The position numbers were made by a program, and so were the translations under genes. This document shows positions 3,755 to 21,600 of a DNA stretch of 64,000 bases, piece by piece. Position 1 is the stretch's first letter. The number at the start of each line of letters is the position of its first letter. Origin of the DNA: an uncultured Eubacteriales bacterium (GTDB lineage: Bacteria > Bacillota > Clostridia > TANB77 > UBA1234); assembly GCA_949283575.1 (NCBI GenBank), contig CASDSU010000028.1:128849-192848 (forward strand), read 5' to 3'. The notes beneath the pieces are model-generated. The model made no database searches. It was not told the DNA's origin and saw only the letters and a program-made list of their open reading frames with translations.

Positions 3755-4040
3755 AACACCTCTCCTTGTATACACAAAGAAATTTGCATATAAATTTACC
3801 TATTTTCTTTTCTGGCGAAGACAGGTCGACACCCTTTAAAAAAGGAGAAAATTTGGCGCTTTTTTAGCTTTTGTCGACAATTGAAATTTCTCTCAACACT
3901 TATTTTAAACCTGCAAAGTTTAAATATATAAGCTTCTCACACAAAATGGCCACAAATATCTTGCAGTCAAGGACGTCGTCAGAACTATTCAAAGTTCCAA
4001 CCCGTGTGTAGACGTAACTCCCATATTTATTATATCGAAA

Positions 4041-4631
4041 TTATATTTTTTCATCAACTCTGTTTTTTCTGTTTTCAAAAAAATTGTTATTAAAAAATAC
4101 TATCCATCCAGAAACAATAACTTGTACAATTATAAGATAAAATGTAATTTGTTTTAATAACTGATTAGAATATTTCGTAACTTCTTCCGCTTTTGCTGAA
4201 ATTTCTTCAATATTATTAGCCGCATCGCCACTATCAACCATGGTCTCAATAAAACCTTCAAAAAGATAATAAATTTTTTGAATTGAATTATAATCATCGA
4301 CTATTTCTTTTACACAGAATAATGCAATTAATGTAAAAGTTACACACATGATCAAAGTATACTTTATTGCCTTCTTAGAAAGCATTTCATAAGAATCAAC
4401 TTCGTATTTAGTCAAAAACTTAGATATCCCAAATCTATATATAAAAAACACAACTATTACCTGAAAAATCATAAAAATAATTGCAAAAATCAAATTAAAC
4501 TCTGATGTAAAAATTTCGGATAAACTCCCCATATCAACCATTTTAGGTAGCATGAAAACCTTGTTTATAATTGTAAATATCACTCCAATTATTGTCCAAA
4601 CAACAAGGCTTCCACAAACATATATACTCAC
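4041..4631 (-). CDS. hypothetical polytopic membrane protein
   Basis: Several hydrophobic helices; no recognisable motif. Confidence 0.45.
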   Translation of the reverse strand: MSIYVCGSLVVWTIIGVIFTIINKVFMLPKMVDMGSLSEIFTSEFNLIFAIIFMIFQVIVVFFIYRFGISKFLTKYEVDSYEMLSKKAIKYTLIMCVTFTLIALFCVKEIVDDYNSIQKIYYLFEGFIETMVDSGDAANNIEEISAKAEEVTKYSNQLLKQITFYLIIVQVIVSGWIVFFNNNFFENRKNRVDEKI

Positions 4632-5794: not shown

Positions 5795-5872
5795 GGTGGA
5801 TGTAGCTCAGTTGGTTAGAGCGCCAGGTTGTGGCCCTGGAGGTCGTGGGTTCGAGTCCCATCTTTCACCCCA
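5795..5872 (+). tRNA. tRNA-His (anticodon GTG) with G-1 and encoded CCA
   Basis: Hand-folded cloverleaf: G-1:C73, D-arm GCTC/GAGC, anticodon stem CCAGG/CCTGG, loop TTGTGGC, T-arm GTGGG-TTCGAGT-CCCAT, CCA at 5870-5872; one U-U mismatch in the acceptor stem. Confidence 0.85.
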
Positions 5873-5908: not shown

Positions 5909-5984
5909 TGGGCTGTAGCCAAGCGGTAAGGCACCAGACTTTGACTCTGGCATTTCGGCGGTTCGAATCCTCCCAGCCCAGCCA
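5909..5984 (+). tRNA. tRNA-Gln (anticodon TTG)
   Basis: Acceptor TGGGCTG/CAGCCCA, D-loop AGCGGTAA, anticodon stem CCAGA/TCTGG with loop CTTTGAC, T-loop GGTTCGAATCC, CCA encoded. Confidence 0.85.
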
Positions 5985-6042
5985 AATTTCATGATTTTTA
6001 AGAGAATTTTAGAAAACTTGTAAGAAACTTAAAAGTCATCAA

Positions 6043-6080
6043 ACCCAGCATTCGAGCTTATTTGGATGCTGGGTATTTTT
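6043..6080 (+). terminator. rho-independent terminator after the tRNA operon
   Basis: CCCAGCAT...ATGCTGGG stem followed by TATTTTTAT. Confidence 0.6.
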
Positions 6081-6181
6081 ATTCTCAGATTTTTTGAAGT
6101 TCTGAAAAGTATCGATTTCAAGTTACAAATTTAAGTTTCAGAAAAATTAGGTTCCAAAAGACTTTTAGGAAAGGAGAAAAA

Positions 6182-6742
6182 ATGGAAGCTAATTTCTATA
6201 AAATTAACGAATCCTTAGAAAATTCATTTTATCAAATCCCAGAAGAATTATTCAAAAACCCTATATATAAAGAAAAATTAGGCTTAGAAGCTAAAGTTTT
6301 ATATGCCTTTTTACTAAGCAGAATGCGATTATCTGCTCAGAATAATTGGATTGATGATGATGGGTATATCTATCTTATCTACAAACGTGTCGATGTTCAA
6401 AAGAAACTTAATCTATCAGATAAGACAGTTACAAAGGCATTCAAACAACTAAAAGAAGTCAAGTTAATACACGAAATAATCCAAGGAATTAATAAGCCTA
6501 ATATTATCTATTTAGCCAAAATAAAACACATGGATATGCCACAGAACTGGACTCGTAAAAATTACGAGCCCGGACACGGAAAAAATACGACTCCGAAGTC
6601 GGAAAATTTACGACCAATATATATAAATAAAGATAAAGAAAATAGATATAATATGCAAACTTCAAAATTTGACAATAGGTTTAGAGATAACAAAGGACAG
6701 TATGATGATTTAGATAAATATATTGAAAATTTTAAAGATTAA
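6182..6742 (+). CDS. replication initiator protein A, N-terminal domain family (RepA_N)
   Basis: LGLEAKVLYAFLLSRMRLS...W.DDDGYIYL motif typical of Firmicutes plasmid/ICE RepA_N; RBS GGAAAGGAG. Confidence 0.7.
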   Translation: MEANFYKINESLENSFYQIPEELFKNPIYKEKLGLEAKVLYAFLLSRMRLSAQNNWIDDDGYIYLIYKRVDVQKKLNLSDKTVTKAFKQLKEVKLIHEIIQGINKPNIIYLAKIKHMDMPQNWTRKNYEPGHGKNTTPKSENLRPIYINKDKENRYNMQTSKFDNRFRDNKGQYDDLDKYIENFKD

Positions 6743-6766
6743 TAAATAAAAAGGAGATGTCTTAAA

Positions 6767-7120
6767 ATGAAATTAGAATACTTAAAAAACGGAGATTATT
6801 ATATACCGAATATAGAATTAGGTTATGAAAATGTAAAGGTGAATTTAGGCAAATATGGAAGGCTAAGAGAAAAATATTTGAGAGAGCATAAACCTTCTTT
6901 ATTTGAGCATTTAAAGATGAGTGAAAGATTAATTCCTCATCTATCAAGTATAGATAAAGAAGCTAAAGCTTATGAAGCATTATTAATAAAACAATTTACT
7001 GAAAAGGAAAATGTTAATGAGAAATTGAAAGTAACAAATCAACTTGGGTGGGTAAAAAATATGAATTCAATTAAGCAAAGAGCCCAAGAAATTGTGTGCA
7101 ATGAAATGATTTATAATTAA
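6767..7120 (+). CDS. TnpV-like transposon-encoded protein
   Basis: KLEYLKNGDYYIP...G.YG.LR..YL..HKP...HL..ID..A...LKV.NQLGWVKNMN.I..RA.EIV resembles TnpV of Tn4451-type elements. Confidence 0.65.
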   Translation: MKLEYLKNGDYYIPNIELGYENVKVNLGKYGRLREKYLREHKPSLFEHLKMSERLIPHLSSIDKEAKAYEALLIKQFTEKENVNEKLKVTNQLGWVKNMNSIKQRAQEIVCNEMIYN

Positions 7121-7150
7121 AAATTCAACTATAGAAAAGAGGATGATTTT

Positions 7151-7474
7151 ATGCAAGAAAAAGGCTTATATGATTTAAGATTATGTGATTTCAATGAACT
7201 AATAAGTGAGGTAAAAGTAGCACTTAGAAACAAAAATAAAGAATATAAAAAGTTGCAAGACAAGTTAGAAAATATTATGGACAATCATCCAAATTTACAG
7301 ATGATTATGGAAGATGATACCGAGTTTAATTTAACAAAAACAGATTGTAAAATGCTTCAGAAATTATTTGAATTACATATAGAAATTCAAGCTTTGGAAG
7401 AACAAGAAATATTTTTCTTAGGTGGCAGAGAAGCTTACTATTATTTCAAAAATATTGGAATTTTAAAAGAATAA
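7151..7474 (+). CDS. hypothetical small helical protein of the mobilization module
   Basis: ORF with RBS AAGAGGATGA; position conserved between TnpV and MobC. Confidence 0.45.
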   Translation: MQEKGLYDLRLCDFNELISEVKVALRNKNKEYKKLQDKLENIMDNHPNLQMIMEDDTEFNLTKTDCKMLQKLFELHIEIQALEEQEIFFLGGREAYYYFKNIGILKE

Positions 7475-7479
7475 TTTAG

Positions 7480-7600
7480 AAGAAAATGCGGGTAAAAGCA
7501 GTGTTTCAAATGCGTTGAAAAATAAAAAGCAAGCAACGCATTTGTACTCCCGCACAAATACACTTGCATAGCTTTAGAATTAAAGCTATGTGATGGGAGA
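7480..7600 (+). promoter_or_regulatory. candidate origin of transfer (oriT) upstream of mobC
   Basis: Inverted repeats CAAATGCGTTG(7507-7517)/CAACGCATTTG(7534-7544), GCGGG/CCCGC arms, and palindrome TAGCTTTAGAATTAAAGCTA(7570-7589), directly upstream of MobC-relaxase. Confidence 0.4.
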
Positions 7601-7647
7601 ACCCAAGCCCCTTTTAATAAAAATTGTAAATGAAAGGAGTTAAAAAT

Positions 7648-7971
7648 ATGAGAAGAAGATCGATTAAAAAACAACTTTGGCTTAGTCAAACTGAAAATAA
7701 AATTTTGAAAGAAAAATCTAAAGTTACAGGACTAAATGAGTCCGAATTAATTCGTAGTTTTATAAAAGGTTATCGCATAAAAGAACAACCAACTGAAGAA
7801 ATAAAACAATTTCAAAAAGAGCTTTCTGGAATAGCAAATAATATAAATCAAATAGCAAAAATAGCAAACACATATCAGTTTGTAAAGCTAGATGATTTTA
7901 AATATATATCATCAAAACTTGCAGATTTTATTTTAAGATTTGAGAAGAAAATTTATTCAAGAGAGAAGTGA
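7648..7971 (+). CDS. mobC: MobC-family relaxosome accessory protein (ribbon-helix-helix)
   Basis: SELIRSFIKGY and GIANNINQIAK motifs; RBS AAAGGAG before ATG at 7648. Confidence 0.7.
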   Translation: MRRRSIKKQLWLSQTENKILKEKSKVTGLNESELIRSFIKGYRIKEQPTEEIKQFQKELSGIANNINQIAKIANTYQFVKLDDFKYISSKLADFILRFEKKIYSREK

Positions 7972-7977
7972 TTTAAA

Positions 7978-9276
7978 ATGGCTGTTATAAAAATTAAAAC
8001 TATAAAAAATAATTTAGAAGCCGTAGTAAACTATGCTCAAAATGGAGATAAAACCGAGAATGAAATATTAGTAACTGGAGTTAATTGTGTGCCACAAACT
8101 GCATATAGTCAAATGGCACTAACAAAGAAATTTTTTCATAAAGAAAGTGGTAGACAGGGTTATCATATTATTCAATCTTTTAATGGAAAAGAAGTTTCTC
8201 CAAACGAAGCCAATGAGCTTGGAACATTACTTGCAGAAGAATTATTTGGAGATAAATTTCAAGCTATAGTTTGTACTCATATAAACAAAGATAATATACA
8301 TAATCACATCGTTTTGAATTCTGTTTCATTTGTTGATGGAAGTAAACATCATAATTCAAAACTTGACATAGCATTAATAAAAGATAAGTCAGATGAGCTA
8401 TGCAAAGAGTATGAATTATCGGTAATCCAAACCTCAAAAGCAAGCAAAACCAATAAGACATATAAAAAAAGAATTTCAAAATACAATAGAAGTAATTCAA
8501 AGATGCTACAAGTGAAAGCTGACATTGATGATGCAATTGCTCAAAGTAGAAAAATGAGTGAATTTTATGATAATTTAAAAATCAAAGGTTATGAAACTTA
8601 CAAAAGAGGTATGTATCTTTCAGTAAAATTACCTTACTTTGCAAGGAATATTCGACTAGAAAGAGCTTTTGGAGAAGAATACTCACTTCATAACATTCAA
8701 GATAAAATTTATTATAGCGAAAAAACCGAAAATCAGAAAAATGGAATTAATAAGAAATATTATAGGAAAGTATATAAAGGACCTAAAATAGATAGCTTTA
8801 AGCTTAAATTTAGCCCATTTTATAGGTCATATGTTAGATGGCTTTACAAACTTGGAAAGTTACCACCTAAGATAGAATACGAAGAATTAACACCAGAATA
8901 TTTTAAGCAAAAAAGAGAAACACAAAATATTCTTGATGAAATTAGTTTTGTGGCTAGAAATAATATCAATAACATTCAAGATGTTCAAAATTGCGAAGAA
9001 TGGATTTCGGTTAAATTAACTAAAGTTAAAGGAGAGCGAGAAAATTTGTGGAGACAGTATAATAAGGCTAAATTACCAGAGAATAAAATTGAAATAAAAA
9101 TGAAAATTGATAGTAAAACTTGTGAAATTAATGCTTATAGCAATGAGCTAAAGATTTGTAGAAGGTTTATGTGGAGACGAGAAATACTTGGGAAAGAAAT
9201 AAGATTATTAAGAATTGAATTAGCAGAAAGTAAAAGAATAGTAAAAATGAAGAATTTATCACGTGAAAAATATTAA
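7978..9276 (+). CDS. MobA/VirD2-family relaxase (mobilization nuclease)
   Basis: N-terminal relaxase fold with HxxxDxxHxH metal motif (HINKDNIHNHIVLN), conserved Tyr region near the N-terminus, C-terminal coiled-coil. Confidence 0.8.
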   Translation: MAVIKIKTIKNNLEAVVNYAQNGDKTENEILVTGVNCVPQTAYSQMALTKKFFHKESGRQGYHIIQSFNGKEVSPNEANELGTLLAEELFGDKFQAIVCTHINKDNIHNHIVLNSVSFVDGSKHHNSKLDIALIKDKSDELCKEYELSVIQTSKASKTNKTYKKRISKYNRSNSKMLQVKADIDDAIAQSRKMSEFYDNLKIKGYETYKRGMYLSVKLPYFARNIRLERAFGEEYSLHNIQDKIYYSEKTENQKNGINKKYYRKVYKGPKIDSFKLKFSPFYRSYVRWLYKLGKLPPKIEYEELTPEYFKQKRETQNILDEISFVARNNINNIQDVQNCEEWISVKLTKVKGERENLWRQYNKAKLPENKIEIKMKIDSKTCEINAYSNELKICRRFMWRREILGKEIRLLRIELAESKRIVKMKNLSREKY

Positions 9277-9420
9277 ATATACAATTATAAATGAGACAAC
9301 AGAATCACGAAAAGATAGACTCATATTAAAAATATAATTTCAATAATTCTAAATACAGATTTGAAATAAAATGGTATTTATTTTATAATTCTGTTATAGA
9401 TAAATTGAGGAGGAAATATT

Positions 9421-9807
9421 ATGGATGAAAAATTTAATCAAGTGAAAAAATTAAATAAGATATCTAAAATTTTAACATTTATCATTGCAGGAGTATGGAT
9501 AATTGGTGGAATAATTGTATTTCAATTATATACTCTTTCTGATTTACAAATGGCATTTAAGGTTATAATAGATTTAATTATAAATAGTTTTAAAGGAAAA
9601 TTAAGTTTAGACGTCATATTAATTGCTTTAATGATAATAGATTTTATTGTTCTTTGTATTCAAACAAATAAATTAAAAGCTAATTGGAAAAAATTTATGA
9701 TAATTGAGTTGATAGTTAAAACATTAGTCTTATTTTACGTGGTAGGAGGATATATTTTATCTTTTTGGTATATGAATAGTTTTGTATTTGATGCATATGG
9801 AATATAA
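9421..9807 (+). CDS. small membrane protein (3-4 TM)
   Basis: RBS GAGGAGGAAA; hydrophobic helices. Confidence 0.5.
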   Translation: MDEKFNQVKKLNKISKILTFIIAGVWIIGGIIVFQLYTLSDLQMAFKVIIDLIINSFKGKLSLDVILIALMIIDFIVLCIQTNKLKANWKKFMIIELIVKTLVLFYVVGGYILSFWYMNSFVFDAYGI

Positions 9808-9859
9808 AATAAAAGGATACTTTCTTACTTGCACCAATTGTGCGAGTAAGAGTGATAAA

Positions 9860-9882
9860 GGTGCGACAAAAAATGTCGCACC
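9860..9882. repeat. perfect hairpin GGTGCGACA-AAAAA-TGTCGCACC; member of a local repeat family (other copies at about 12680-12705 and 13320-13345)
   Basis: 9-bp stem with A5 loop, preceded by ACCAATTGTGCGAGTA; a similar unit ACCAATGGTGCGAGTA plus GTACGACATTTTTCGTCGCAC lies at 12668-12705. Confidence 0.55.
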
Positions 9883-9927
9883 TTTGTCTTGCATCAACAG
9901 CACACTTTTTACATATTTTTTATCGGT

Positions 9928-10164
9928 TCACTTGTTCGGTTCTAGTATATTCCAATAACCTTTTCTATCAGAACCTATTCTTTCAATAATGTGTGTTTCT
10001 TTAAGTTTGCGTATATGATTTGTTATTGTACTTTTTCTAAATCCTGTTATTTCACATATTTCAACTTGTGTAATTTGAGGATTTTGATTCATTAGCTTAA
10101 TGATTTGAGAATCTATAATTTCTGTCTCTTTCTTCTGTCCATTTCTATTCACTTTCCAACACAT
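9928..10164 (-). pseudogene. orphan C-terminal winged-helix fragment, homologous to the HTH tail of the AlbA_2/HATPase_c_4 regulator at 13408..14871
   Basis: 78-aa ORF aligns to the C-terminus of the 487-aa protein (ILQFLADRDGAKNSEIANFIERSPSTTRKILAELKNKNII vs IIKLMNQNPQITQVEICEITGFRKSTITNHIRKLKETHII). It has no N-terminal domains and abuts the relaxase relic. Confidence 0.5.
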
Positions 10165-10180
10165 CTAAAATAGGTTGAAA

Positions 10181-10245
10181 ATAATGCTTATAGCAATGAG
10201 CTGAATATTTGTAGAAGGTTTATGTGGAGAAGAGAAATACTAAAA
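10181..10245 (+). repeat. relic of a second relaxase gene 3' end (about 63 bp, roughly 93% identical to 9128..9190)
   Basis: AATGCTTATAGCAATGAGCT[G]AA[T]ATTTGTAGAAGGTTTATGTGGAGA[A]GAGAAATACT matches the last codons of the relaxase at 7978..9276. Confidence 0.65.
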
Positions 10246-10396
10246 AAGAAACAAATATATTAAAAACACAAGAAATTTCTAAAGTCATTTTTAAAAGGAA
10301 AAAAGAAAAAGTACGATAATTATAAAAATGGCAAAGAAATTAAATCTCTGCCATTTCTTTATAACGAACTATTTTCACTCCTACTGATAATATTAA

Positions 10397-11533
10397 TTAC
10401 ATATTTTCAAAAAACAATTCATAAGTATTATCTGATTCATTTAAAAATTTTAATTCTACACACGAAAAATCCAACTCTTTTGGTATTTCAAAAACAACAT
10501 AAAATTGAGTAAGGTCTCCTTCGCAGTATTGCTTCTTTATTTCTCTTGGGATTATTGTTGCTCTAGTACTTCCTTCCAAAGCATTTTTTAAATCATAGGC
10601 TGAAACTGTAACTTCTGGTTTTACAGCAGAAAATGTTGATGTTGAATTAAACGGGAAATCTATATCAGTTAAATCTACATCAAATAATGCACAATACAAA
10701 TTTTTATTTTCATTTATTGTGTATTTAGGGAACAAACTTGTACCGCCATATCCTTCTGCAAAAGCTATATTATATTTACCAGCTTTTTCAAAAGCATTAT
10801 TATAATCTTCGATAATTTCAATAGCTGTGTTGCCACTATATATTTCTTTCATTTTTAAATGTAATGAACTCATTGAAATTTTATTATTTCCATTTTCATC
10901 AAGTCCAGTACCTGAGTGAAGATTAACAGTACCAGCTTGTCCTTTTAGGGCTGGTGTATCTGTATGAACCTTTGCTAAGGAAGCAAAACTTTCTTTTGGC
11001 AATTCTGGAATTTGAGTACTTGGTGTTATTCCTCTATACGTATCATCAAGTATTACAGAATTTGTGTTTCCATCCCATTTGATTTCTATATCAAACAAAT
11101 TTGAGATTGCACGTACAGGCAAATATGTAGTTCCTTGATAAGAAAGAGGATATACTACATTTTCGTTTACATCTTTAAAAGTTTGATACATTCCATCGTA
11201 TGAAACTCTTATTTTGTCATTTAATAGAACTTGAATATTTTCTGTAGGTTCAGCAATAAAATTTTCAATTGATTGCGCTGAAATTTTGTCTAATTCGCCT
11301 TCACCTAATTCTACAGCATTCAATTTTTGATTCCAATTAATTCTAATATTAAATATGCTAGAAATTGATCTTATTGGAAGATATGTAGTTCCTTCATAAG
11401 ATATAGGATAAACCTTCTGTCCACTTACATTTTTAAATTCTTGAATTTCATTATTATACAATATTTTCAATCCTTTGTTTAAAACTACATTAACATCTTG
11501 ACTTGCATATACGCAATTAGAGCAGAAAAACAT
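10397..11533 (-). CDS. secreted protein with two copper-amine-oxidase N-terminal-like (stalk) domains; probable true start upstream, disrupted by a T8 homopolymer
   Basis: Two repeats of Y.GTTYLP.R.IS..F...I.W. Removing one T from the run at 11553-11560 gives MKRIFLVISILAMFFCSNCVYA signal peptide in frame. Confidence 0.65.
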   Translation of the reverse strand: MFFCSNCVYASQDVNVVLNKGLKILYNNEIQEFKNVSGQKVYPISYEGTTYLPIRSISSIFNIRINWNQKLNAVELGEGELDKISAQSIENFIAEPTENIQVLLNDKIRVSYDGMYQTFKDVNENVVYPLSYQGTTYLPVRAISNLFDIEIKWDGNTNSVILDDTYRGITPSTQIPELPKESFASLAKVHTDTPALKGQAGTVNLHSGTGLDENGNNKISMSSLHLKMKEIYSGNTAIEIIEDYNNAFEKAGKYNIAFAEGYGGTSLFPKYTINENKNLYCALFDVDLTDIDFPFNSTSTFSAVKPEVTVSAYDLKNALEGSTRATIIPREIKKQYCEGDLTQFYVVFEIPKELDFSCVELKFLNESDNTYELFFENM

Positions 11534-11641
11534 TGCAAGTATCGAAATTACTAAAAAAAATTCTTTTCATATTTCATACCTCTTTTCTTTCGATTTGTTA
11601 ATTATATTATATCATTTTTAACTGTTACATTATAGAAAATT

Positions 11642-12508
11642 TTATTGTTTTAAGAATTCTTTACAAGCTTGATAAGAATATGTTACAAGATTTGCTAAAG
11701 ATTTATAATTCATTTCATAAAATGGTTTAACAAATTCGGTACTAATCTCTTTGCTGTTGTATGTTATAGATAAATGAGAGTATTTCTTAATAATTTTATC
11801 TAATTCTTCTTTTGATTTTAACTCATTTTCGTTAATTATAAATTTGCAATAAATTTTATATGTTGTTACTGGTGTACGTCGTATTTTTTTAGATACAATC
11901 TTAAATTCGAAGTAATTTCCATTACTATCTTTATAACCATTTTTATTTTCTAATTCTGAAATTTGTTTTCTTAAATTTCCAATAGCAAATTCTTCATCTG
12001 GAATAAATTTTTTTGAAGATTTTTTCTGTGTTTTTAATATATCCACTTGATTTTTCAGTTTTTTAATTTCTTCTCTTTTATTAAGACATTCGGTCAACTG
12101 ATATCTTTCAAATAAATATTCATCTAAATTATAATACCAAATACTTTTATAATAATCTGAAATTACAACTGTTGCTATGCCAACTCCGCAAGCAATTGGA
12201 AGTATAACTGCAATAATTATACTTAATACATTATTAATAGTTATTAAATTTATTATAAATGATATTAAAGATATAAATATAATTCCGAATACACCTAAAA
12301 ACACTTTGACTCTAGTTTCTTTTTTATTCTTTTCTTTCAATTTCTTGTATTCTTCATCTGAAATCTGTGTTATTTCCTTTATATCTTTATATCTTTTTCT
12401 GTAATCAATTCTTTTACCTATATCTAATCCTAATCCACTTCTAATCTCACTTGTTATTAATAAACCTATAAATATTATTATTAAATATATTATTGTTTTT
12501 AAGTTCAT
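11642..12508 (-). CDS. membrane protein with coiled-coil region (hypothetical)
   Basis: N-terminal TM, second TM pair, K/E-rich helix; RBS present. Confidence 0.5.
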   Translation of the reverse strand: MNLKTIIYLIIIFIGLLITSEIRSGLGLDIGKRIDYRKRYKDIKEITQISDEEYKKLKEKNKKETRVKVFLGVFGIIFISLISFIINLITINNVLSIIIAVILPIACGVGIATVVISDYYKSIWYYNLDEYLFERYQLTECLNKREEIKKLKNQVDILKTQKKSSKKFIPDEEFAIGNLRKQISELENKNGYKDSNGNYFEFKIVSKKIRRTPVTTYKIYCKFIINENELKSKEELDKIIKKYSHLSITYNSKEISTEFVKPFYEMNYKSLANLVTYSYQACKEFLKQ

Positions 12509-12724
12509 TTTTAAACTCCTTTATTTAAACTTCGTCAATCACTAATATATATTCTAAAATTATGTTATTTTCCATATAGCAACCATCCATTTTCGGCCGA
12601 GGTACATTTTTTAGTAATTATATGAGATATCTTGCAGTACAATTATTTATATATATTTCTCGTACCAATGGTGCGAGTATTGTACGACATTTTTCGTCGC
12701 ACATTTTATGAAATTATCTATGCA

Positions 12725-13333
12725 TTAACTTGATTTTAAACAATCTAATAATTCCATCCAACTTCTTTTGTCACATTCAAAACCATAATCTTCCGCATTT
12801 TCGAGTTCGAATATCATTTTTTCTTTTATCTCATTGGTTATTACCTCAACATTAGCAATAATAAAACTAAGAATTACACCTGTTATATATGTTTTTCTTC
12901 CTAAACCGTATTTTATTGCTTCTAGCATTAATAGTTCCAATTCATTGTTCGTAATGTTGATATCTATAACACCATCAAATTGTTTATCTTCAAATGATTG
13001 TTGCAGAGCTTTTTCTATCTTATTAGCAAAAGTAAGCCACTTCTCTTCATTATCTAAAGGTCCATAGAGTGGACTTGCGTTTCTTTCTTTGATATCTCTA
13101 ATAAAAATCATTTTCATTTTTTCTGACATATAATCAAGATTATCTATAACTATTTTCTGAAAAGTATCTAATTCAATATATTTAGCAGTATCTCTTAATT
13201 CGTTTCTTAATACACTAGCTAAAATTAATTCAAAATATAAATTTTTATTATTTATTTTCATAAAATCACCACTTTCTTGATTTATTATCTGTGAAATTTC
13301 CTGTGAAGTTATCTGTGCAGAATAATGCGACAA
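12725..13333 (-). CDS. hypothetical protein
   Basis: ORF with plausible internal start MKINNKN; no recognisable domain. Confidence 0.45.
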   Translation of the reverse strand: MSHYSAQITSQEISQIINQESGDFMKINNKNLYFELILASVLRNELRDTAKYIELDTFQKIVIDNLDYMSEKMKMIFIRDIKERNASPLYGPLDNEEKWLTFANKIEKALQQSFEDKQFDGVIDINITNNELELLMLEAIKYGLGRKTYITGVILSFIIANVEVITNEIKEKMIFELENAEDYGFECDKRSWMELLDCLKSS

Positions 13334-13344
13334 AAGTGCGACAT

Positions 13345-13413
13345 TACTCGCTCACTACTCGCTTTTACTCGCTCATTACTTGTTTCTACTCGCTCATTAC
13401 TCGCTTATTACAT
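13345..13413. repeat. tandem array of about 6.5 copies of a 10-11 bp unit TACTCGCT(C/T)(A/T)(C/T), helical-phase periodicity
   Basis: tactcgctcac|tactcgcttt|tactcgctcat|tacttgtttc|tactcgctcat|tactcgcttat|tacattc. Unit is the reverse complement of the GTGCGAGTA/GAGCGAGTA motif found at 9848 and 12676. Confidence 0.75.
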
Positions 13414-14871
13414 TCTTATTTTATATTTTCCTTTTGGGTCATTTTGAGATATTCCGTTCCAATAAATTATATTTTTATTTTTTAATTCAGCTAAAATTTT
13501 TCTTGTTGTAGAAGGGCTTCTTTCAATAAAATTTGCGATTTCTGAGTTTTTGGCACCGTCTCTATCTGCTAAAAATTGTAAAATTTTTCTTTCTGTTTCA
13601 TTGAAATTGTTCCAATTATCACTTATTGCACTATTCTTCTTTAAATCATCTTCTTGTCTTGCGTTTCTAGATAAATAATTATTTTTTAAAGTCAAAATAA
13701 ATATATCACTACTTGTTACTTTAAATTCGGGTTCTTCTAAAAAATATTTTTTCATTTCTCTATAAATTCTTGGTATTCCTTCGCTTAGTTCTCTTACAAC
13801 ACCAAATTCAGTTAAAGTTCTGGCTATAACACGATTTCTAGAGTATCTTTCTGTTTGTAAATTCTCTAAAGTTACTAATCCAGCAAGTTTTCCAGGACTT
13901 CTAATTTCCATTCTGTTGTTATAAATAAAAATCTTTATATATTCTCCACCCATTACATAATTTCTATGTGTAACAGCATTTGTAACACCTTCAACATAAG
14001 TGAATTCAGGGTATTCAGGTATAGTTTCAAATTCCCCTTCTGAATTTAAGTGTGTAGAATCTCTTAACTGTGTATGAACAAATTCTGGAACTTCCTTTAT
14101 TGCTTTATATAGTGGCAAGGCAAAAGTTTTATCTTTAATAATATTTAAATCTTTTCCGGGTAACATTTCATTTCCATCAAATTTTACAATTCTAATTCTG
14201 GCTGTAGGCAAATAAATTGATGGATCTTGAGCAAATAATAGTACGCCTGCTTTAGTTAATAATTTTTGTCCATTCACAATACTTTCTCTTAAAAAACCTC
14301 TAGCTCTTAAGACTTCTTCATCAGATTTATCTTCAGCGTCTATTTTTTGTTTATATATGCTTAAAACTTCCTTATCTATTATATCAATTGTAGCATAAGG
14401 AACCAACTCATCTTCAAATGAAACATCGGGTCTATCCATTTTCAATACTTGGATTTGCTCATCTGTTAATTTGATAGTTGAGTCACCTCGTCTTAAATAC
14501 ACTTCATCTTTTTGATTTCTAATTAATTTATTTAAACTAATCGCAATATGAAGTAACAAAACAGTATCATCTTCATTTTTTACATTTACTACGCTTAATT
14601 CTTCATATTTGATTTCTGGTTCTGCATTTAAATATTGAACACTTTTTCTAAATTGATTTAACTTATCTGGACAACTATTAAATCCAACAATCTCTCCATT
14701 GTTAGAAATTCCTACAGCAAGTATTCCTCCATCTGCATTTGCCATACCTGCAATATGATTTGCAAGGTCTAGTTCACTTATACTTGAACTTTTTCTATCA
14801 AAATTTTGATTTTCTCTGTTATTACATAAATATTCTAATGTAATAGCAGGATTTATTTTAGATGAAATCAT
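13408..14871 (-). CDS. AlbA_2 (Schlafen-like) / HATPase_c_4 / winged-helix putative ATP-binding regulator (RecG-C-terminal-like family)
   Basis: Architecture typical of the 'putative DNA-binding / ATP-dependent DNA helicase RecG C-terminal' family; C-terminal wHTH; operonic with the upstream gene (14-nt gap). Confidence 0.6.
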   Translation of the reverse strand: MISSKINPAITLEYLCNNRENQNFDRKSSSISELDLANHIAGMANADGGILAVGISNNGEIVGFNSCPDKLNQFRKSVQYLNAEPEIKYEELSVVNVKNEDDTVLLLHIAISLNKLIRNQKDEVYLRRGDSTIKLTDEQIQVLKMDRPDVSFEDELVPYATIDIIDKEVLSIYKQKIDAEDKSDEEVLRARGFLRESIVNGQKLLTKAGVLLFAQDPSIYLPTARIRIVKFDGNEMLPGKDLNIIKDKTFALPLYKAIKEVPEFVHTQLRDSTHLNSEGEFETIPEYPEFTYVEGVTNAVTHRNYVMGGEYIKIFIYNNRMEIRSPGKLAGLVTLENLQTERYSRNRVIARTLTEFGVVRELSEGIPRIYREMKKYFLEEPEFKVTSSDIFILTLKNNYLSRNARQEDDLKKNSAISDNWNNFNETERKILQFLADRDGAKNSEIANFIERSPSTTRKILAELKNKNIIYWNGISQNDPKGKYKIRM

Positions 14872-14885
14872 AAGTTACCTCCTAA

Positions 14886-15815
14886 TCACTTATTTTTTCT
14901 TTTTCTAGTATTAGCTATATTAGCCTTATTTCTACATGTTGTTGTATCATATTCAGCTTTTAAATTTTCAGCTATAAATGGTTTTCCACAATATTTACAT
15001 AGCCTAACTTCTGTTCTGCCATTTGTTTCGTTTAATAATAACATTGCATTAATTGCAGCTCTCAACGAATGAAAATTCCACTGAAATTTTATTTTTCCAT
15101 TTTCTATACCATATTTAAAATTAATTTTATATACTTCTTGGTTAAGTATCGTTTCGGCATAAAATTCTTTTAAATCAGGTTCTAAGTTACCATATAAATA
15201 AGTACCAATTACTCCTTTAGTGACATATACGCTTTCAGCAAAATCTATAATTTCAGATATTGGCTCTGCATAATTCTTTGAAAAAATAAAATCATTTAAA
15301 CGGTCACCTTCAACTTGTATAAGATTAGCGTCTAAACCAGAATTTCGGTGCAAATCATTAACTGTCATTTTTTTAGACCAATCAATCTTTTTATCAGGCC
15401 AAAAATATCTTTGCTCAAAATCTATTATTGATAATGAACTATCTAATTTTGAAGAATATGAGATTTCATTATCTTTCTCTAAAAAGTCAAAATTTTTAGG
15501 AAAATATCTAAAATTGCCTAACAACCCATATTTTGATACAAAATCTAACACAACTTTTTGAAATTCTTTTGTTTTACTCTTTGCTTCATAAGTTAAATTA
15601 GTATTGGTAAATTTTATAGTTTCATCTCCATTTACCATTTCGCCTATAATCATTAAATCCTTTAAAATATCATTTTTAATTTCAAAAGGGTCATAGGTAA
15701 TAGGCACTGCGTTTTCATCAGGTAAAACATAAAGAATATTATTATTTTTTTCAATTTTATATTTACTATACTTACACCATTTTGACATAAATTCGATTTT
15801 TTCTTCTTTTATCAT
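14886..15815 (-). CDS. hypothetical protein with C-terminal zinc-ribbon-like motif (CKYCGKPF...C) and basic tail
   Basis: ORF with RBS; CxxC...C at C-terminus followed by RKRKNK; no known domain recognised. Confidence 0.5.
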   Translation of the reverse strand: MIKEEKIEFMSKWCKYSKYKIEKNNNILYVLPDENAVPITYDPFEIKNDILKDLMIIGEMVNGDETIKFTNTNLTYEAKSKTKEFQKVVLDFVSKYGLLGNFRYFPKNFDFLEKDNEISYSSKLDSSLSIIDFEQRYFWPDKKIDWSKKMTVNDLHRNSGLDANLIQVEGDRLNDFIFSKNYAEPISEIIDFAESVYVTKGVIGTYLYGNLEPDLKEFYAETILNQEVYKINFKYGIENGKIKFQWNFHSLRAAINAMLLLNETNGRTEVRLCKYCGKPFIAENLKAEYDTTTCRNKANIANTRKRKNK

Positions 15816-16018
15816 TTCATCACCTCAAAAAAATTCATAAAAACACAAGAAAAATCTTGACTTATTTCGAATGATAATATATATTTGAAATAAGTTAGAA
15901 ACTATAATATTTCTAACACATTATAGTTTGTTTCTAAGATATATTTAAATTATATATCAAAAGTATTACAAAGTCAAATATATCTAAAGTAAAAAATGAT
16001 GAAAGGAGGGATGAACAC

Positions 16019-16222
16019 ATGAGAGATAAAGCTTTAGAATCAAAACCAATGCCAGTACTGTACTCAACAGATGATGTATGCAAAATGTTTCATATCAGTA
16101 GGCTTACTTGTCTAAACCTATTTCGCAGAAATGACTTTCCAGCTCAAAAGTTTGGACGAGCCTACAAAGTGGAAGCAAATGCACTAAATGAATATCTTAG
16201 CAAAAGACATATCTTGGCATAA
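16019..16222 (+). CDS. xis: excisionase-family DNA-binding protein (Xis, MerR-like HTH)
   Basis: 67 aa, small basic HTH protein immediately upstream of the integrase; RBS AAAGGAGGGATG. Confidence 0.65.
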   Translation: MRDKALESKPMPVLYSTDDVCKMFHISRLTCLNLFRRNDFPAQKFGRAYKVEANALNEYLSKRHILA

Positions 16223-16362
16223 AAAGAAAGAAGACTTAGAAAATGGCGTTTCTAAATCTTCAACACGAACCAGGGAATGTCCCAAGCTCTAACCTATGAG
16301 AAGATTATAACACAATAAAGTAATAGTTTTCAAGACATTCCCTTAAATTTTAAGAGGGATCT

Positions 16363-17778
16363 ATGAAAAAACTTATCGAAGGACGCGACTATTCAGTCAA
16401 TAAGTTCGTAACAAAAGATAAAAGAATTAGCTCTAATAGAAATATATGTCCTACTTGCAAAGATTGCAGCCATAAAAAACTATGTAGCAACAGAGCAACT
16501 CTATACACAATGAAGAAATGCGATAAATGTAGAGAATGCTTAGATAACGACAATTGTGATAAATATTATATCTATGTTAGATATAAAGCCGAAATCTTGA
16601 ATTTAGGGCATAATGAAATAACAGGAGAGCAAATAAGAAAACAATTCAGTGGAAAAACTAAAGAAGAAGCAGTTCAAAATTTATATAAGGCCTACGATGA
16701 AGTAATCAATAATAAGTCCAAAGAAAAAGAGACAAAAATCATTGAAGTATCAATAGTTAGCATAGCAACATCTCTTGAAGAAAAGAAACTCAAGAAAGGA
16801 CTTATTAAATCAAATGGATACAAAACGAATGCAGACACAATAAATAGAATTGGTAAAAACAAATTTGCAAATATTCCAATTCAAAATGTGACTAAAAAGC
16901 AAATTGAAGATTTCTTAGAAGAAGAAAGAAAAAACTTTAATTCTACTATCGGAAAGGATTTCAGAATTCTTAAAGGTGCATATAAAGAGGCACATAGAAA
17001 AGGTTTAATCAAAGAAAATTACTTTGACTCTGATGATCCAATAGAAAAGCCAAAAAGTCATAAGCAAGAAAAGAAAGTTGTAGCTTTAACAGCAAAAGAA
17101 CAATATCTTTTAGAAAGATATATCAATGAAAATTATTCAAAATATAACAACATCTTATTGCTATGTTTATACACAGGAATGCGAATTGGAGAAGTGTTAT
17201 CTTTAAGTCCTGATGCTATAACTTATGACAGTAAAAATGGCACTATCAATATAACAAGAACTTTAACAAGAGATAAAAATGGCAAAGTTATTATAGGAGA
17301 TGTGCCTAAAACTAAGAATGGTATTAGAAGAGTTGACCTAAGAGAAAATTCTAAAAGAGTTCTAGATAATGCACTTAAAGATATGAAGCCTAATCCTTAC
17401 AATGTAATATTTGCACAAGAAAATGGAGAGCTATACAAAGAAAGTATAATTAACAATGCTTTTAAAAGAATTGCAAAGAACGCAGGAATCAAAGTTATAA
17501 CTACCAAGAAGAAAAAGAAGAATGGAAAAACAGTAAATCTAAAATCTAGCACTGTAAATACACATATGCTTAGGCACACCTTTGCAACAAGATGTATCGA
17601 GGCAGGAGTTCCACTTCATATTCTTCAAAAAGTATTAGGTCATTCAAAATTCAAACAACTATTGATACATACGGAGATATCTACGATTACTTCAGGCAAA
17701 AAGAAATGGAAAAGTATGATGAATATATGGCAGAAATACACAATTCATTTAAGAAAGAATGCAAAAAATAAAATATAA
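16363..17778 (+). CDS. int: tyrosine-type site-specific integrase with Cys-rich N-terminal domain; C-terminus frameshifted at an A4 run (17646-17649) before the catalytic Tyr
   Basis: Conserved HMLRHTFATR and VLGHS motifs. The canonical ending ...IQTTIDTYGDIYDYFRQKEMEKYDEYM... is only in the +1 frame, recovered by inserting one A. Confidence 0.75.
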   Translation: MKKLIEGRDYSVNKFVTKDKRISSNRNICPTCKDCSHKKLCSNRATLYTMKKCDKCRECLDNDNCDKYYIYVRYKAEILNLGHNEITGEQIRKQFSGKTKEEAVQNLYKAYDEVINNKSKEKETKIIEVSIVSIATSLEEKKLKKGLIKSNGYKTNADTINRIGKNKFANIPIQNVTKKQIEDFLEEERKNFNSTIGKDFRILKGAYKEAHRKGLIKENYFDSDDPIEKPKSHKQEKKVVALTAKEQYLLERYINENYSKYNNILLLCLYTGMRIGEVLSLSPDAITYDSKNGTINITRTLTRDKNGKVIIGDVPKTKNGIRRVDLRENSKRVLDNALKDMKPNPYNVIFAQENGELYKESIINNAFKRIAKNAGIKVITTKKKKKNGKTVNLKSSTVNTHMLRHTFATRCIEAGVPLHILQKVLGHSKFKQLLIHTEISTITSGKKKWKSMMNIWQKYTIHLRKNAKNKI

Positions 17779-18381
17779 AAGTCAAACTAAATATTTCTGG
17801 AACTTAAGTTCCAAATAAGCATAAAATGCGAAAGACTTGAAATGATTTACGTGTTTTTACAAAAAAAGATTGGTGGTGAAATCACGTGATTACAATGCGA
17901 AAAAGCATAACAAATTTAAGAGATAGCAAAAAAGAGTTTATTTTAGATTGTAAGATTAGAAATCTAAATGTAGAAACAGACGCATTTACAATTCATCTAT
18001 TGCCTGATGATAAAATGAGACCGTTTTCTAATAAATACTAAATATAAAAAAGGACAAGAGCCCGGAAGAAGACTCATTGTCCTTTGCTATTTCTTAAAAA
18101 TTCTCTTGTGATTATATTGCAATTTTCTTAAATTTAAACCCAATCGCATTTTTTCCTTATTTGTAAGATTAAAAGCGTTGCTAATATATCCTTTTTAATC
18201 TCCACATTATAATCATCTAAATTTCTTGCTTTTTTCATCTATTTCCAAAAATACAAAAAATACATTGTAATAAATAACAAACTATATTTTATTACATTTT
18301 CTAGCATTAACTTTATTTCTTTTTTTAAATATTTTTTAAACTTTCTTTTAAATACGGTGTCATCCTCAATTTAAATCATCT

Positions 18382-18684
18382 CTACATATAATCCTTCGTT
18401 CCTTGTATAACCCTCTTCATAAAATTCATATACAAAACTGCTTCTTCCCTTTTTTCATACCCATCAAAAACATCAATCAAACATTCTTTTATCGAATCCA
18501 TTTCTTCTTTAAAATATTCTAACTCAGGAAGCTCTCTAATCATCTTTTCAAGCGAACTTGCAAACTCCAATTCATTTTCTGTTACCATTAACTCATAAAC
18601 TTCCTTAATAGTCTTCTCAATCATACTAACTTCTGTTTTCATTTTCATTATTTTTGGAACCAGCGTATTCGTATTTAATTTCAT
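18382..18684 (-). CDS. small helical acidic protein, partner of the upstream multi-AAA gene
   Basis: 100 aa; RBS AGGAGGAG; 12-nt gap to upstream gene. Confidence 0.5.
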   Translation of the reverse strand: MKLNTNTLVPKIMKMKTEVSMIEKTIKEVYELMVTENELEFASSLEKMIRELPELEYFKEEMDSIKECLIDVFDGYEKREEAVLYMNFMKRVIQGTKDYM

Positions 18685-18696
18685 AACAAGCTCCTC

Positions 18697-21600
18697 CTAA
18701 TCTAAATCTTCTGGTAATATATTTACAAGTGTATCCTTATCCATTTCTGTCATCATAGAAAGTCTCAACGCCTGATTATTTAACGATCTTTCAAATACAT
18801 TTCTAACATATCTACCATTACCAAATCTCACATCCTGCTTTGCTACTGCAAGTATCATTTTTAACTTTTCTTTCGCTTCTTTTGTCAAATTATATCCATT
18901 TTTTTGATACATTTTATCAGCAATAACCATTAGTTCATCTACTGTATAATCTTCAAATTCTATTACATTTGGGAACCTAGACATAAGTCCCGAATTAACA
19001 TCTAAAAATTCAGTCATCTCTTTACTGTATCCTGCAAGTATTACTACAAGTTTATCACGATTGTCATCCATTAATTTTATTAATGTGTCAATTGCTTCTT
19101 TTCCGAAATCACTATTTCCTCCTTGAGATAACGCATAAGCTTCATCAATAAATAGCACACCATTAAAAGCTTCTTTTACTTTTTCAGTTGTCTTCATAGC
19201 TGTTTGCCCAACGTAGCCAGCAACAAGACCAGCTCTATCTGTTTCAACTAATTTGTCAGTCGAAATAACCCCAAGTTTGTATAGCATATTTGCAACAGCT
19301 CTAGCCATCATGGTTTTTCCTGTACCTGGATTTCCTTTAAAAATCATGTGAAGTGATTGTTCATCATTTACGATTAGTCCCATTTTCTTACGCTCATTCA
19401 TGATTTTTATTCTAGCAGCAAGCATTCTAATGTATTGTTTTACAGATTCTAATCCAATTATGCTATCAAAAATTTGTTCATAATCATATTCACTATTTTC
19501 AGTTTCGTATTTCTTGCCTACATCTTCTGGCAAAATAATATTAATATCATTTAATGCTACATCTTCTAGCATCGCAATTCTTGTACTTTGATTTCTAACA
19601 ATTTCATCAATAAGATTCCTAACCATTCTTCCATTTCCAGAATAAGTAGCTGCTGTTTTCTTCATAAATTCTAATTTTTCAGCGGCAACAGCTCTTGCTT
19701 CATCTGTTATCTGGAACCCTCTCGAGGCAATCATTTTATCAAAAATTTGTGCAAGCTCATCAGCTGTATAATCTGGGAAATCAAGTTTAAGTGGAAATCT
19801 AGATTCTAAACCAGAATTTGCTTTTAAGAAATCACCCATTTCTTTTTCATAGCCTGCAAGTATTACTAAAATTTCTCCTCTATGATCTTCCATAAGTTTT
19901 ATTAATGTGTCAATTGCTTCTCTTCCGAAATCACCATCTCCGCCTTGTGATAACGAATATGCTTCATCAATAAATAATACTCCACCTAGTGCACTATTAA
20001 ACACATCAGTTGTTTTTGGAGCGGTTTGTCCAACATATTCAGCAACTAAATCTGCTCTCGCAACTTCAACAATATGACCTTGTCTTAAAAATCCCATTTC
20101 TTTAAGCATTTGTGAAACAAGCCTTGCTACTGTTGTTTTACCAGTTCCAGGATTTCCTATAAAAATCATATTCAAAGACTGAGTAACATCGGTTGTAACT
20201 CCAAGACTTCTTCTCTTTTCTTGAGCTTTCAAAATATTATATTGATTTCTTAAAAAGTCTTTAACATTATCAAGACCAATTATTTTCGAAAGCGCTTCTT
20301 CTAAATCAAAATTTTCTTTCTTTTCAAGTTCAAAATCTACAAGCTTAATTAATGAATAATCGACTTCATTCTCTTTAACGATTCTAACTGCTTGATTTGC
20401 CATCGCAGATTCCATTACATTTCTAACAAGACGACCGTTTCCATTAGGATTTTTTCCTGTATAAATTTTCGATTCAAAAAATTCTATAAGTGGCTCATAA
20501 CAATTAACATCAATCTTATATTCATTTTGCTTTGCAATATTTTCAGCAATTCGATACATCTCATCAGCGGTATAATCTTTAAAATCAATTATATTTTGAA
20601 ACCTTGATTTAAGTCCGGTTGCTAAGCGAAGCATATCATCCATTTCATCTTTATATCCAGCAAGAATTACAACTAAATTATCTCTATTATCTTCAATCAT
20701 TTTAAGCAAAGTCTCAATTGCTTCTTTTCCATAATCATCCGTTTTTGAATTCAGCAACGAATAAGCTTCGTCAATAAACAGAACTCCTCCAAAAGCTGAT
20801 GCAACGCATTCCCTTGTCATTTGAGCAGTTTCACCAGGATGACTTCCAACTAAATTTGCTCTACTTACTTCTACAAAATGTCCTTTTTCTAGCATCCCAA
20901 GTGCACTCAAATACTCAGCAACAATTCTTGCAATAGTAGTTTTACCTGTACCAGGATTACCTGTAAAAATCATATTAAGCGGAAGTGGCGCAACTCTCAT
21001 TCCCGCACGCTCCCTCATTTTTTGAGCAGTTATATTATCCTCTAAACGATATAAATAATCTTTGACTTCATTAAGTCCAATTATCGAATTAAGTTTAGCT
21101 TTAACAATAGTAAGTCGATTCGAAACCCTCGAATCAGCTGCATTATCTAGCAATAATTTTTCTCCATTAGACTCTATAAAAATTTGCTCATCTTCAACAC
21201 CAATTATATATTGTTGTTTATTACTGATTTTTCCTTTCAATTTATACTCAGAAATTGGTCTAAAAATCCTGTGATCAATTAACAAATTAACACCATTAAT
21301 TCCAGTCGCACTAGAATATGTATTTCTCAAATATTCTTCAAGTGAAAACATATAATCAATATTAATATCTAAATCCTTTTTACATTTTTTCTTAAAATGT
21401 TCTATAAGAGAATTTATCATTTGATTAATTTCTTCTTCAGTAAAATCATTCGCGGTAATAACGTCCTTAATATTTTCTGCAATATCAAGTCCTATTACAT
21501 CTTCAAATTCATGCTCAGGTTTATTTGAAATGAAAACAAAATATTCTCCATTTGTTTTTATCTCAAGAACACCCTTAGGAGTATTAATTTCTATTCTTCC

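Follow-up and report, generated by a model that had tools for sequence, protein, structure and literature searches.

Several integrative mobilizable elements (IMEs) with tyrosine integrases reside at the 3' ends of tRNA genes, and passages of one review list NBU1 at tRNA-Leu, NBU2 at tRNA-Ser, Tn6031 at tRNA-Pro and IME_Sag2603_tRNAlys among them (PMC5704250). Here we describe a locus of this type in a 64,000-nucleotide stretch (hereafter the window) of contig CASDSU010000028.1 from an uncultured Eubacteriales bacterium. We put at about 0.82 the probability that positions 5973-17845 of the window are a decayed IME copy, one of a family of ~8-12 kb IMEs in uncultured low-GC gut Clostridia. The copy is a mosaic and probably immobile; its family is unnamed and of a kind, tRNA-targeting IMEs, that is already well known. 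At 11.9 kb, it appears stuck in the chromosome, and the family itself looks real and mobile.

As portrayed in the passages of that review, tRNA-targeting IMEs share with the window family a size of ~10 kb, a tyrosine integrase and a short core at the tRNA 3' end, as well as a relaxase and origin of transfer (oriT) of their own without mating-pore genes, variable cargo, and both tandem accretion and decayed copies at the same site (PMC5704250). Unlike them, the family targets tRNA-Gln(UUG), which is absent from the review's table passages. It also differs from NBU and other tRNA IMEs in its RepA_N-TnpV-DUF6664-MobC-relaxase backbone and the Cys-rich N-terminus of its integrase (Int), and the window copy is defective. 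Streptococcal IMEs likewise combine a PF03432/MobP relaxase with a tyrosine integrase at the opposite end, undergo accretion, and encode a RepA_N protein whose length is far below that of plasmid RepA_N initiators (Coluzzi et al. 2017, PMC5357655). The short streptococcal RepA_N proteins (~100 aa), however, belong to the class with MobV and MobT relaxases, not PF03432, and hosts and targets differ as well (theirs being rpsI, rpmG, rplL and other tRNAs), the likeness in class being one of description (PMC5357655). For NBU and the streptococcal IMEs alike, the resemblance is drawn from layout and description.

Two further families resemble the element in part. The catalytic and core-binding domains of Int resemble those of the Tn1549/Tn916 family, with 6EN0, 6EMY and 6EMZ as the best solved-structure matches (E = 9e-19, or 1.5e-26 with a profile); compared with the Tn916-type int-xis-rep module, the catalytic region is distantly akin to Tn1549 Int (E = 9e-19) and the N-terminal 135 residues are unmatched. 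The Xis-Int order is common to both, and Tn6218 of C. difficile is also small and without conjugation genes (PMC3914685). Tn916 and Tn6218, though, have many AT-rich insertion sites and a rep gene of the Tn916 type (PMC3914685), whereas the window family is tied to a single tRNA core, repeated exactly over 11-12 nt, and has a PF03432 relaxase with MobC and a different Int N-terminus. We rejected a Tn916/Tn6218-like identity, as all members examined sit at the tRNA-Gln core or, in a sister clade, at a tRNA-Pro core. With Tn4451/Tn4453 the family has in common a TnpV homologue (PF14198 is named after the Tn4451-type TnpV) and mobilization in trans, which is predicted for the window family. The recombinase of Tn4451 is the large serine recombinase TnpX. 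Its relaxase is the MobV protein TnpZ, according to the table passages of PMC5704250. An identity with Tn4451/Tn4453 was also rejected, since only TnpV is shared, the recombinase here being a tyrosine integrase and the relaxase a PF03432 protein.

We established that the block is an insertion by comparing it with the same site in other strains. The target, tRNA-Gln(UUG) at 5909-5984 (+), was called by ARAGORN and Rfam, and its 3' end is now fused to element DNA; upstream lies its chromosomal neighbour tRNA-His(GUG) at 5796-5872 (+) (ARAGORN; Rfam RF00005, 65.5 bits). Rfam returned only these two tRNAs, tRNA-His and tRNA-Gln. Collecting sites through a 100-aa protein encoded to the right of the block yielded 19 contigs; L001 is the window's own contig (ENA ERZ17292903, k87_4718189, 141 kb, a metagenome assembly; 100% identical). 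A look-up of the AAA_33 protein of the left flank gave no match. Three sites (L002, L003 and L008), whose flanks are 98.8-99.4% identical to those of the window and which belong, by sequence, to the same species, carry the same tRNA-Gln and are empty: the tRNA is linked to window position 17846 by only ~100 nt with two hairpin terminators. Such empty sites beside 99%-identical flanks identify the block as an insertion. Two other pairs with equally similar flanks hold different occupants, with integrase regions ~90% (L006/L007) and ~75% (L004/L005) identical in nucleotides. One site with 99%-identical flanks is thus found empty or occupied by the window type or by a relative of 90% or 75% identity, and these sequences indicate that it has been occupied repeatedly and independently.

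Comparison with empty sites and relatives also defined the ends. The attL core, CCAGCCCAGCCA at 5973-5984 (+), is the last 12 nt of tRNA-Gln and lies inside the tRNA gene, and element DNA proper runs from 5985 to 17845. The left arm at 5985-6181 (+) replaces the region natively downstream of the tRNA; in L037/L038, a window-type left arm (93% identical) begins right after the tRNA terminus ...CCCAGCCA. The same 11-12-nt core serves as attR in L004-L007, L032-L036 and L041-L043. It stands directly after the conserved right arm, in the form (C)CAGCCCAGCCA, in L004/L005, L006/L007, L032-L034, L035/L036 and L041-L043, and in L032-L034 an unrelated integrase gene adjoins it. As the elements each end with an 11-12-nt repeat of the tRNA-Gln(UUG) 3' end, the sequences indicate that the family integrates site-specifically there. 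The left arm also contains a strong intrinsic terminator, a hairpin with a T-run encoded by the element at 6043-6084 (+) (terminator scan; 14-pair stem, 6 GC pairs). Judging from its position, it would halt transcription of the tRNA operon once the element has integrated, taking over from the native terminator that was displaced.

The window copy lacks a right att site. At the junction between 17845 and 17846, alignment with L006/L007, L041-L043 and the empty sites L002/L003/L008 revealed that ~138 nt are missing. The gap takes in the terminal 24 nt of the right arm (TAGGATACAAGACCAAAATTCTAG) and the attR core CCAGCCCAGCCA as well as ~100 nt of native flank with its two hairpins. The window reads ...GACTTGAAATGA directly joined to TTTACGTGTTTTTAC... 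across this point. In L006/L007 the right arm extends beyond the window's stop as ...GAAATGAC-TAGGATACAAGACCAAAATTCTAG-CCAGCCCAGCCA-ACGTGCTG..., followed by the native 100 nt. Searching the whole window for the core with up to one mismatch returned a single match, the attL copy at 5974-5984, which is its sole copy there.

These results bear on an earlier, sequence-only reading of the locus, the original prediction, which had placed an IME at 6100-17830 immediately 3' of a tRNA pair. The block does directly follow tRNA-His and tRNA-Gln, but the element begins inside the tRNA-Gln 3' end and is not merely adjacent to it, and the empty-site and relative alignments move its limits to 5973-17845. 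Its view of the tRNA pair as an integration hotspot was borne out by the empty or variously occupied sites in strains with 99%-identical flanks. It had also proposed comparison with an empty site and named the lack of any such site as evidence to the contrary; L002, L003 and L008 are empty. Its observation that no direct repeat of the tRNA 3' end was present holds for the window copy, and the reason is that the 138-nt deletion took attR.

The second lesion is in the integrase gene, at 16363-17778 (+) (Pfam Phage_integrase, E = 2e-21), of which codons 1 to ~429 are in frame. Nucleotide alignment with L005, L007, L032 and L035 located a 1-nt deletion in an A-run at 17646-17649 (+), with A4 in the window and A5 in all relatives (GG[A/T]CATTCAAAAATTCAAAC). 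Protein and frame alignments (P0001/P0002/P0006/P0012 and L005/L007/L032/L035) placed the segment with the catalytic tyrosine (TTIDTYGDIY) out of frame. The true C-terminus (KIQTTIDTYGDIYDYF...KK*) can be read in another frame with its stop at 17771, and three-frame translation likewise placed the conserved C-terminus KIQTTIDTYGDIYDYFRQKEMEKYDEYMAEIHNSFKKECKK* outside the int frame. Relatives cease to match the window Int at residue ~428, and when it is aligned to 6EN0, the Tn1549 integrase, the nucleophile position has no tyrosine. Since the wrong frame stays open for ~42 codons, the open reading frame (ORF) appears full-length, giving a product of 471 aa compared with 469-477 aa in relatives. 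The gene is intact in siblings P0001, P0126 and P0127, the latter two being close siblings in the same 90% cluster. Directly upstream of int, as in all relatives, lies a 67-aa Xis-type excisionase of the HTH_17 family at 16019-16222 (+) (PF12728, E = 2e-8; its TIGR01764 score is below the model cut-off).

Taken as an IME, the window copy has a relaxase and oriT of its own (in silico only), has no conjugation module, and occupies a site that is polymorphic for presence and absence (empty in L002, L003 and L008). It has no functional integrase, Xis being intact and int frameshifted, and no attL-attR pair sharing a core, attR being deleted; such a pair is present in siblings L041-L043, L006/L007 and L004/L005, and in part in L037. 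Because both the integrase and the paired att sites fail, we file the window copy as a decayed member of an unnamed family of known kind. With attR deleted and the catalytic tyrosine lost, it would no longer excise unaided and is effectively a fixed genomic island, in which relaxase, MobC, oriT and cargo ORFs are still intact. Decay of a similar kind is seen in L037, where the core is degenerate (CAACCCGGCCA) and an internal stretch is deleted. Given the loss of attR and the Int frameshift, the window copy is expected to yield no product in a PCR for a circular intermediate. Scanning JGI metagenomes for the end signature (right end plus core) returned one unrelated high-GC chance match, L044, and the same scan of viral contigs returned no match, so these scans provide no evidence of an attP or circular form.

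Both arms carry repeats of a short motif. The left arm contains three or four direct copies of the GTT(C/T/A)CA(A/G)A type between 6097 and 6160 (+), at 6099, 6122, 6135 and 6151. The right arm carries two inverted copies as a palindrome at 17794-17819, TTTCTGGAAC-TTAA-GTTCCAAATAAG, within which GGAACTTAAGTTCC occupies 17799-17812. Edge motifs had been reported at 6131, 6147 and 17804, and we recovered all of them: TTAAGTTTCA at 6131-6140, TTAGGTTCCAAAAG at 6147-6160 and TTAAGTTCCAAATAAG at 17804-17819. Half-sites recur at the same positions in both arms of relatives, and the motif is present in all right arms compared. In L004/L005/L035/L036, the half-sites of the palindrome are kept and the spacer is changed (GGAAC-GAAA-GTTCC versus GGAAC-TTAA-GTTCC in the window). 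The left arm of L035, whose Int is 67% identical, carries GTTCCAAAT and GTTCCAGAAAT.

The gene content is that of a mobilizable element. Gene order across the block is RepA_N, TnpV, DUF6664, MobC/NikA, PF03432 relaxase, cargo, Xis and tyrosine integrase; the RepA_N-to-relaxase block is on the plus strand, the cargo is mostly on the minus strand, and xis and int follow. A short RepA_N-domain protein of 186 aa (6182-6742, +; Pfam PF06970, E = 1e-23; PHROGs DnaD-like/replication initiator), encoded by the first gene after the tRNA in all relatives, is a putative replication or maintenance protein of the excised circle. It is followed by a 117-aa TnpV homologue (6767-7120, +; Pfam PF14198, E = 1e-35) and a 107-aa DUF6664 protein (7151-7474, +; Pfam PF20369, E = 2e-15) that is kept in L014, L015, L025, L035 and L041. 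In the spacer between the DUF6664 gene and mobC, an inverted-repeat search identified a candidate oriT at 7500-7570 (+), in which a perfect 11-bp inverted repeat (7507-7517/7534-7544) precedes a ~35-nt conserved block, ...GCAAGCAACGCATTTGTACTCCCGCACAAATAC. L035 and the second L014 element preserve this block almost unchanged, though their proteins are only ~50% identical to those of the window. An inverted repeat with an adjoining conserved block is the usual anatomy of an oriT, and the placement of oriT between DUF6664 and mobC is thus supported in silico. A MobC/NikA-like ribbon-helix-helix relaxosome accessory protein (7630-7971, +; PF21983, E = 2e-13; PF05713, E = 9e-9; gene callers place its start at 7648) and a 432-aa MobP-type PF03432 relaxase (7978-9276, +; Pfam E = 5e-37) come next, the latter having kept Tyr19 and the histidine triad THINKDNIHNH. 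Plasmid relatives of the relaxase are at most 39% identical and often stand beside mobC, and 1056 of the 1433 records are on plasmids typed mobilizable. The conserved backbone ends with orf128 (9421-9807, +), which is 92% identical in nucleotides in L041-L043.

No VirB4, VirD4, TcpA or FtsK-like protein was detected by Pfam among all ORFs of at least 50 aa in 5985-17845, and neither the block nor the rest of the 64-kb window contains a gene for a type IV secretion system (T4SS) ATPase or coupling protein. The original prediction had named the gene set (RepA_N-TnpV-oriT-MobC-relaxase with Xis-Int), the lack of T4SS genes and the IME class, and all three agree with our results: the set is present by Pfam, with oriT in silico, there are no T4SS genes in the block or the 64-kb window, and the combination of relaxase and oriT, no mating apparatus and empty sites is that of an IME. 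Its estimate of ~6.5 kb of cargo is close to the ~6.7 kb measured (9277-16018). Two points of it need changing. A Tn916/Tn5252-style transposon, one of the types whose ends it proposed to align, does not fit a family that is site-specific for the tRNA-Gln(UUG) 3' end, and the activity it implied is contradicted by the lost attR and an int without its catalytic tyrosine.

The life cycle of intact members can be proposed from comparative anatomy and established IME knowledge. Comparative anatomy shows that the tyrosine integrase recombines the circular element with the last 11-12 nt of tRNA-Gln(UUG), whereby the entering left arm rebuilds the tRNA 3' end and brings a new terminator, and the displaced tRNA end becomes attR. 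From what is established for IMEs, Xis and Int would later excise the element, whose circle may be maintained with the help of the short RepA_N protein. The oriT between DUF6664 and mobC would then be nicked by MobC and the PF03432 relaxase, and the DNA would leave through the mating pore of a co-resident conjugative element. The predicted circular junction reads ...AAAATTCTAG(T/C)CAGCCCAGCCAAATTTCATG for intact L041-type siblings and would read ...GAAATGA(N)nCCAGCCCAGCCAAATTTCATG for the window copy, were it to excise.

A sister clade with a different target follows the same plan. Its integrases are 46-48% identical, and its elements are flanked by 11-13-nt repeats of the tRNA-Pro(UGG) 3' end. 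The layout is the same (tRNA, terminator hairpin, repeated arm motifs, RepA_N ... Xis-Int, arm motifs, core), with an analogous hairpin at the same place and another repeated motif in both arms. Scanning genome contigs with Int recovered relatives at 50% identity or less, corresponding to this tRNA-Pro clade, and no close copies. The sister clade forms tandem arrays. L021 (3111-19789) contains a perfect tandem array of two copies with three cores exactly 8334 nt apart, and L014 (2431-14678), of the tRNA-Pro clade, contains a relaxase-less member followed by a RepA_N-TnpV-DUF6664-MobC-relaxase member. The sequences of these arrays suggest cis-mobilization of relaxase-less neighbours.

Other remnants and insertions were seen around the target. 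Two att cores 152 nt apart surround a GC-rich relic in L035 (11526-11687) and L036 (3081-3242), which looks like a minimal remnant of an earlier tRNA-Gln occupant. Downstream of the intact attR in L041, a second islet of ~3 kb (11513-14507), which bears a Lactamase_B/anti-Pycsar Apyc1-like gene, terminates in a 3' piece of tRNA-Gln with additional CAGCC repeats (…CCCAGCCCAGCCCAGCCCAGCCA). In the empty-site strain L003, an IS1595-family transposase gene and a 102-aa ORF lie between tRNA-His and the AAA_33 gene (2943-4444); these are not in the window. The second glutamine tRNA, tRNA-Gln(CUG) at 28587-28662 (-), has a different 3' end (…CCACCCGAGCCA) without an att-core match and is unoccupied.

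Between orf128 and xis, members differ. In L041-L043, the backbone (RepA_N to orf128, and xis-int) shares ~92% identity with that of the window, but the region between is wholly different, and comparative anatomy shows this interval to be a swappable cargo slot. Across members, cargo types include a DpnII-type restriction-modification (R-M) system and AAA_15/21 ATPases or Schlafen-like ATPases. The slot of L041-L043 contains unannotated 206-aa and 363-aa genes, a Schlafen-like protein, an AAA_15/21 ATPase and a DUF6076 protein; that of L035 contains the DpnII-type R-M system, a HATPase_c_3 protein and a DUF6076 protein. In the window, five cargo genes are on the minus strand: a 378-aa protein with Cu_amine_oxidN1-type repeats (10397-11533; PF07833, E = 1e-12; internal repeat 11054-11179/11312-11437); the 288-aa orf288 (11642-12508), with a 59% identical homologue in L032; the 178-202-aa orf202 (12725-13333), whose sole match is phrog_11947; a 487-aa protein with Schlafen/AlbA_2, HATPase_c_4 and winged-HTH domains (13408-14871; Pfam, phrog_12156); and orf309 (14886-15815), which is divergent from xis and whose place is taken in siblings by a 313-aa homologue (36%) or a DUF6076 protein. 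The 487-aa protein is a putative ATPase or regulator of defence-island type. PADLOC found no complete known defence system in the window cargo, a pAgo fusion model matching only over the Schlafen-like N-terminal part. Neither orf128, orf202, orf288 nor orf309 has a Pfam match even at E <= 5, and orf128 has no PHROGs match either. Between orf202 and the Schlafen-like gene, overlapping the 3' end of the latter, are ~3.5 tandem copies of a 21-nt unit (TACTCGCTCAYTACTCGCTT) at 13345-13417.

The slot also holds two relics. A 78-codon wHTH ORF at 9928-10164 (-) corresponds to the C-terminal ~72 residues of the siblings' 490-503-aa Schlafen/AlbA_2-type protein (blastp 85-87% identity to residues 420-494 of the L032 and L041 proteins; nucleotide match at L041 5054-5264). 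Next to it, a relaxase 3'-end relic at 10176-10266 (+) is 86% identical to 9123-9214 and 82% identical to the relaxase 3' end of L037. By sequence, both are scars of past recombination or accretion, making the element a mosaic.

We weighed several other explanations against that of a decayed IME copy. Both defects could stem from assembly or sequencing of an element that is really intact, and there are grounds for suspicion: the window comes from a metagenome assembly (ERZ17292903, k87_4718189), the right junction is seen in one assembly only, and the frameshift is within a homopolymer. The exact frameshifted 471-aa Int, however, occurs on four contigs of differing size (one of 37 kb, one of 141 kb and a further two in the 0.2-1 Mb range, up to 499 kb), which speaks against an assembler artefact; these come from NCBI, ENA and Logan and thus from at least two assemblers. 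A clean 138-nt deletion that is collinear on both sides is not a typical assembly error, and two independent defects in one functional module fit decay, of which L037 is a comparable case. We therefore consider an artefact quite unlikely. Less plausible still is an active IME that excises, circularizes and is mobilized using ends other than those we delineated. All backbone ORFs are open, including the 471-codon int, relaxase, MobC and oriT seem intact, and arm motifs stand on both sides, yet the catalytic-tyrosine segment is out of frame, the right-arm end and core present in every relative are missing, and 64 kb contain no second core within one mismatch. Several points nevertheless weigh against decay as we describe it. 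The 138-nt deletion was read in a single assembly, one or a few samples may be the source of all four contigs that carry the frameshifted Int, and a one-base homopolymer change is the commonest kind of sequencing error. A related integrase acting in trans could in principle recombine attL, yet the window has no attR core as its partner. Excision, transfer and a helper element are all presumed from sequence. The arm motifs are candidate binding sites for an arm-type recombinase or Xis solely by position and conservation, and their counts in the window are near chance or weakly above it (GTTCCARA, 10 versus 4.3 expected, reached by 1 of 100 shuffles; AGTTYCARAA, 4 versus 1.8 expected).

The remaining alternatives concern what the block is and how it arose. 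Its phage-type Int and Xis could point to a phage satellite or the remnant of a prophage instead of an element that depends on conjugation, as could the matches of the RepA_N protein to phage DnaD-like/replication PHROGs and that of the Schlafen-like protein to phrog_12156. Neither Pfam nor PHROGs identified virion, capsid, terminase, portal, tail, packaging or lysis genes in the block, which instead carries a MobC-relaxase pair with a conserved oriT-like site, and its end signature is unmatched in viral contigs; this is the most improbable of the alternatives. Supplementing the explanation of a decayed IME is the proposal that two family members first accumulated in tandem at tRNA-Gln and were then fused into the present block when the DNA between was deleted. 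In its favour, the 3'-end relic of a Schlafen-like gene (9928-10164) is directly followed by that of a second relaxase (10176-10266), tandem or abutting elements occur in relatives L021, L014, L032-L034 and L041, and an accretion-deletion model has been reported for streptococcal elements (PMC5357655). Homologous recombination between two circular or integrated relatives, or exchange of cargo cassettes, would leave similar scars, however, and the intermediate tandem form of this pair was not found. We therefore hold this history tentatively, at a little under even odds.

The N-terminal region of Int sets the family apart. Residues 1-140 (16363-16782) contain two C-x2-C-x2-C-x5-C motifs, which persist down to 27% identity, and aligning 20 intact homologues revealed eight invariant cysteines in the first 65 residues. 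An AlphaFold model (pLDDT 77) places the cysteines in a loop between strands 1 and 2 of a three-stranded sheet, with a long helix after it, so that in the model they look like an insertion in the first hairpin of an arm-binding sheet-plus-helix domain. This N-terminus matched no Pfam family (E <= 5), the N-terminal 135 residues have no sequence relative in the PDB, and fold searches with the model gave no clear relative. An exhaustive search of 1.84 billion representatives recovered the module in only 45 clusters, always at the N-terminus, with full-length hits of integrase size (434-488 aa). The module is rare and previously undescribed. CX2CX5C spacing serves zinc sites as well as the Fe-S clusters of WhiB, AddB and Cas4-type proteins. 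That the module binds an iron-sulfur rather than a zinc cluster, so that integration and excision could answer to redox state or oxygen in these strict anaerobes, is a long shot.

Large genes lie to the right of the element. Directly adjoining it, 18382-22593 (-) codes for a protein of 1298 aa that contains three AAA + AAA_lid_6 modules (SpoVK/CbxX-like); a 100-aa ORF closely precedes it on the same strand. The protein is chromosomal, is also present in empty-site strains, where it is conserved, and in PADLOC weakly resembles ATPases of the IetA/TRIP13 type. Further away, at 51324-63271 (-), are three consecutive giant ORFs of 1083, 1866 and 1024 aa without a Pfam match at E <= 1e-5.

Together, these comparisons cleanly resolve the life cycle of a small island, with one tRNA-Gln site found empty, variously occupied, holding tandem copies or relics, or frozen by two small mutations. 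They also demonstrate that mobility should not be concluded from an int ORF that is open over its full length together with a gene set that looks complete. Relatives can now be annotated from the att core, the arm layout and the oriT candidate, which are sufficiently well defined for that purpose. The result is ordinary biology that will not surprise a specialist, with one small unexplained protein module at the Int N-terminus. Defence-type genes are frequent in the variable slot, which makes the family a plausible carrier of such genes between gut anaerobes.

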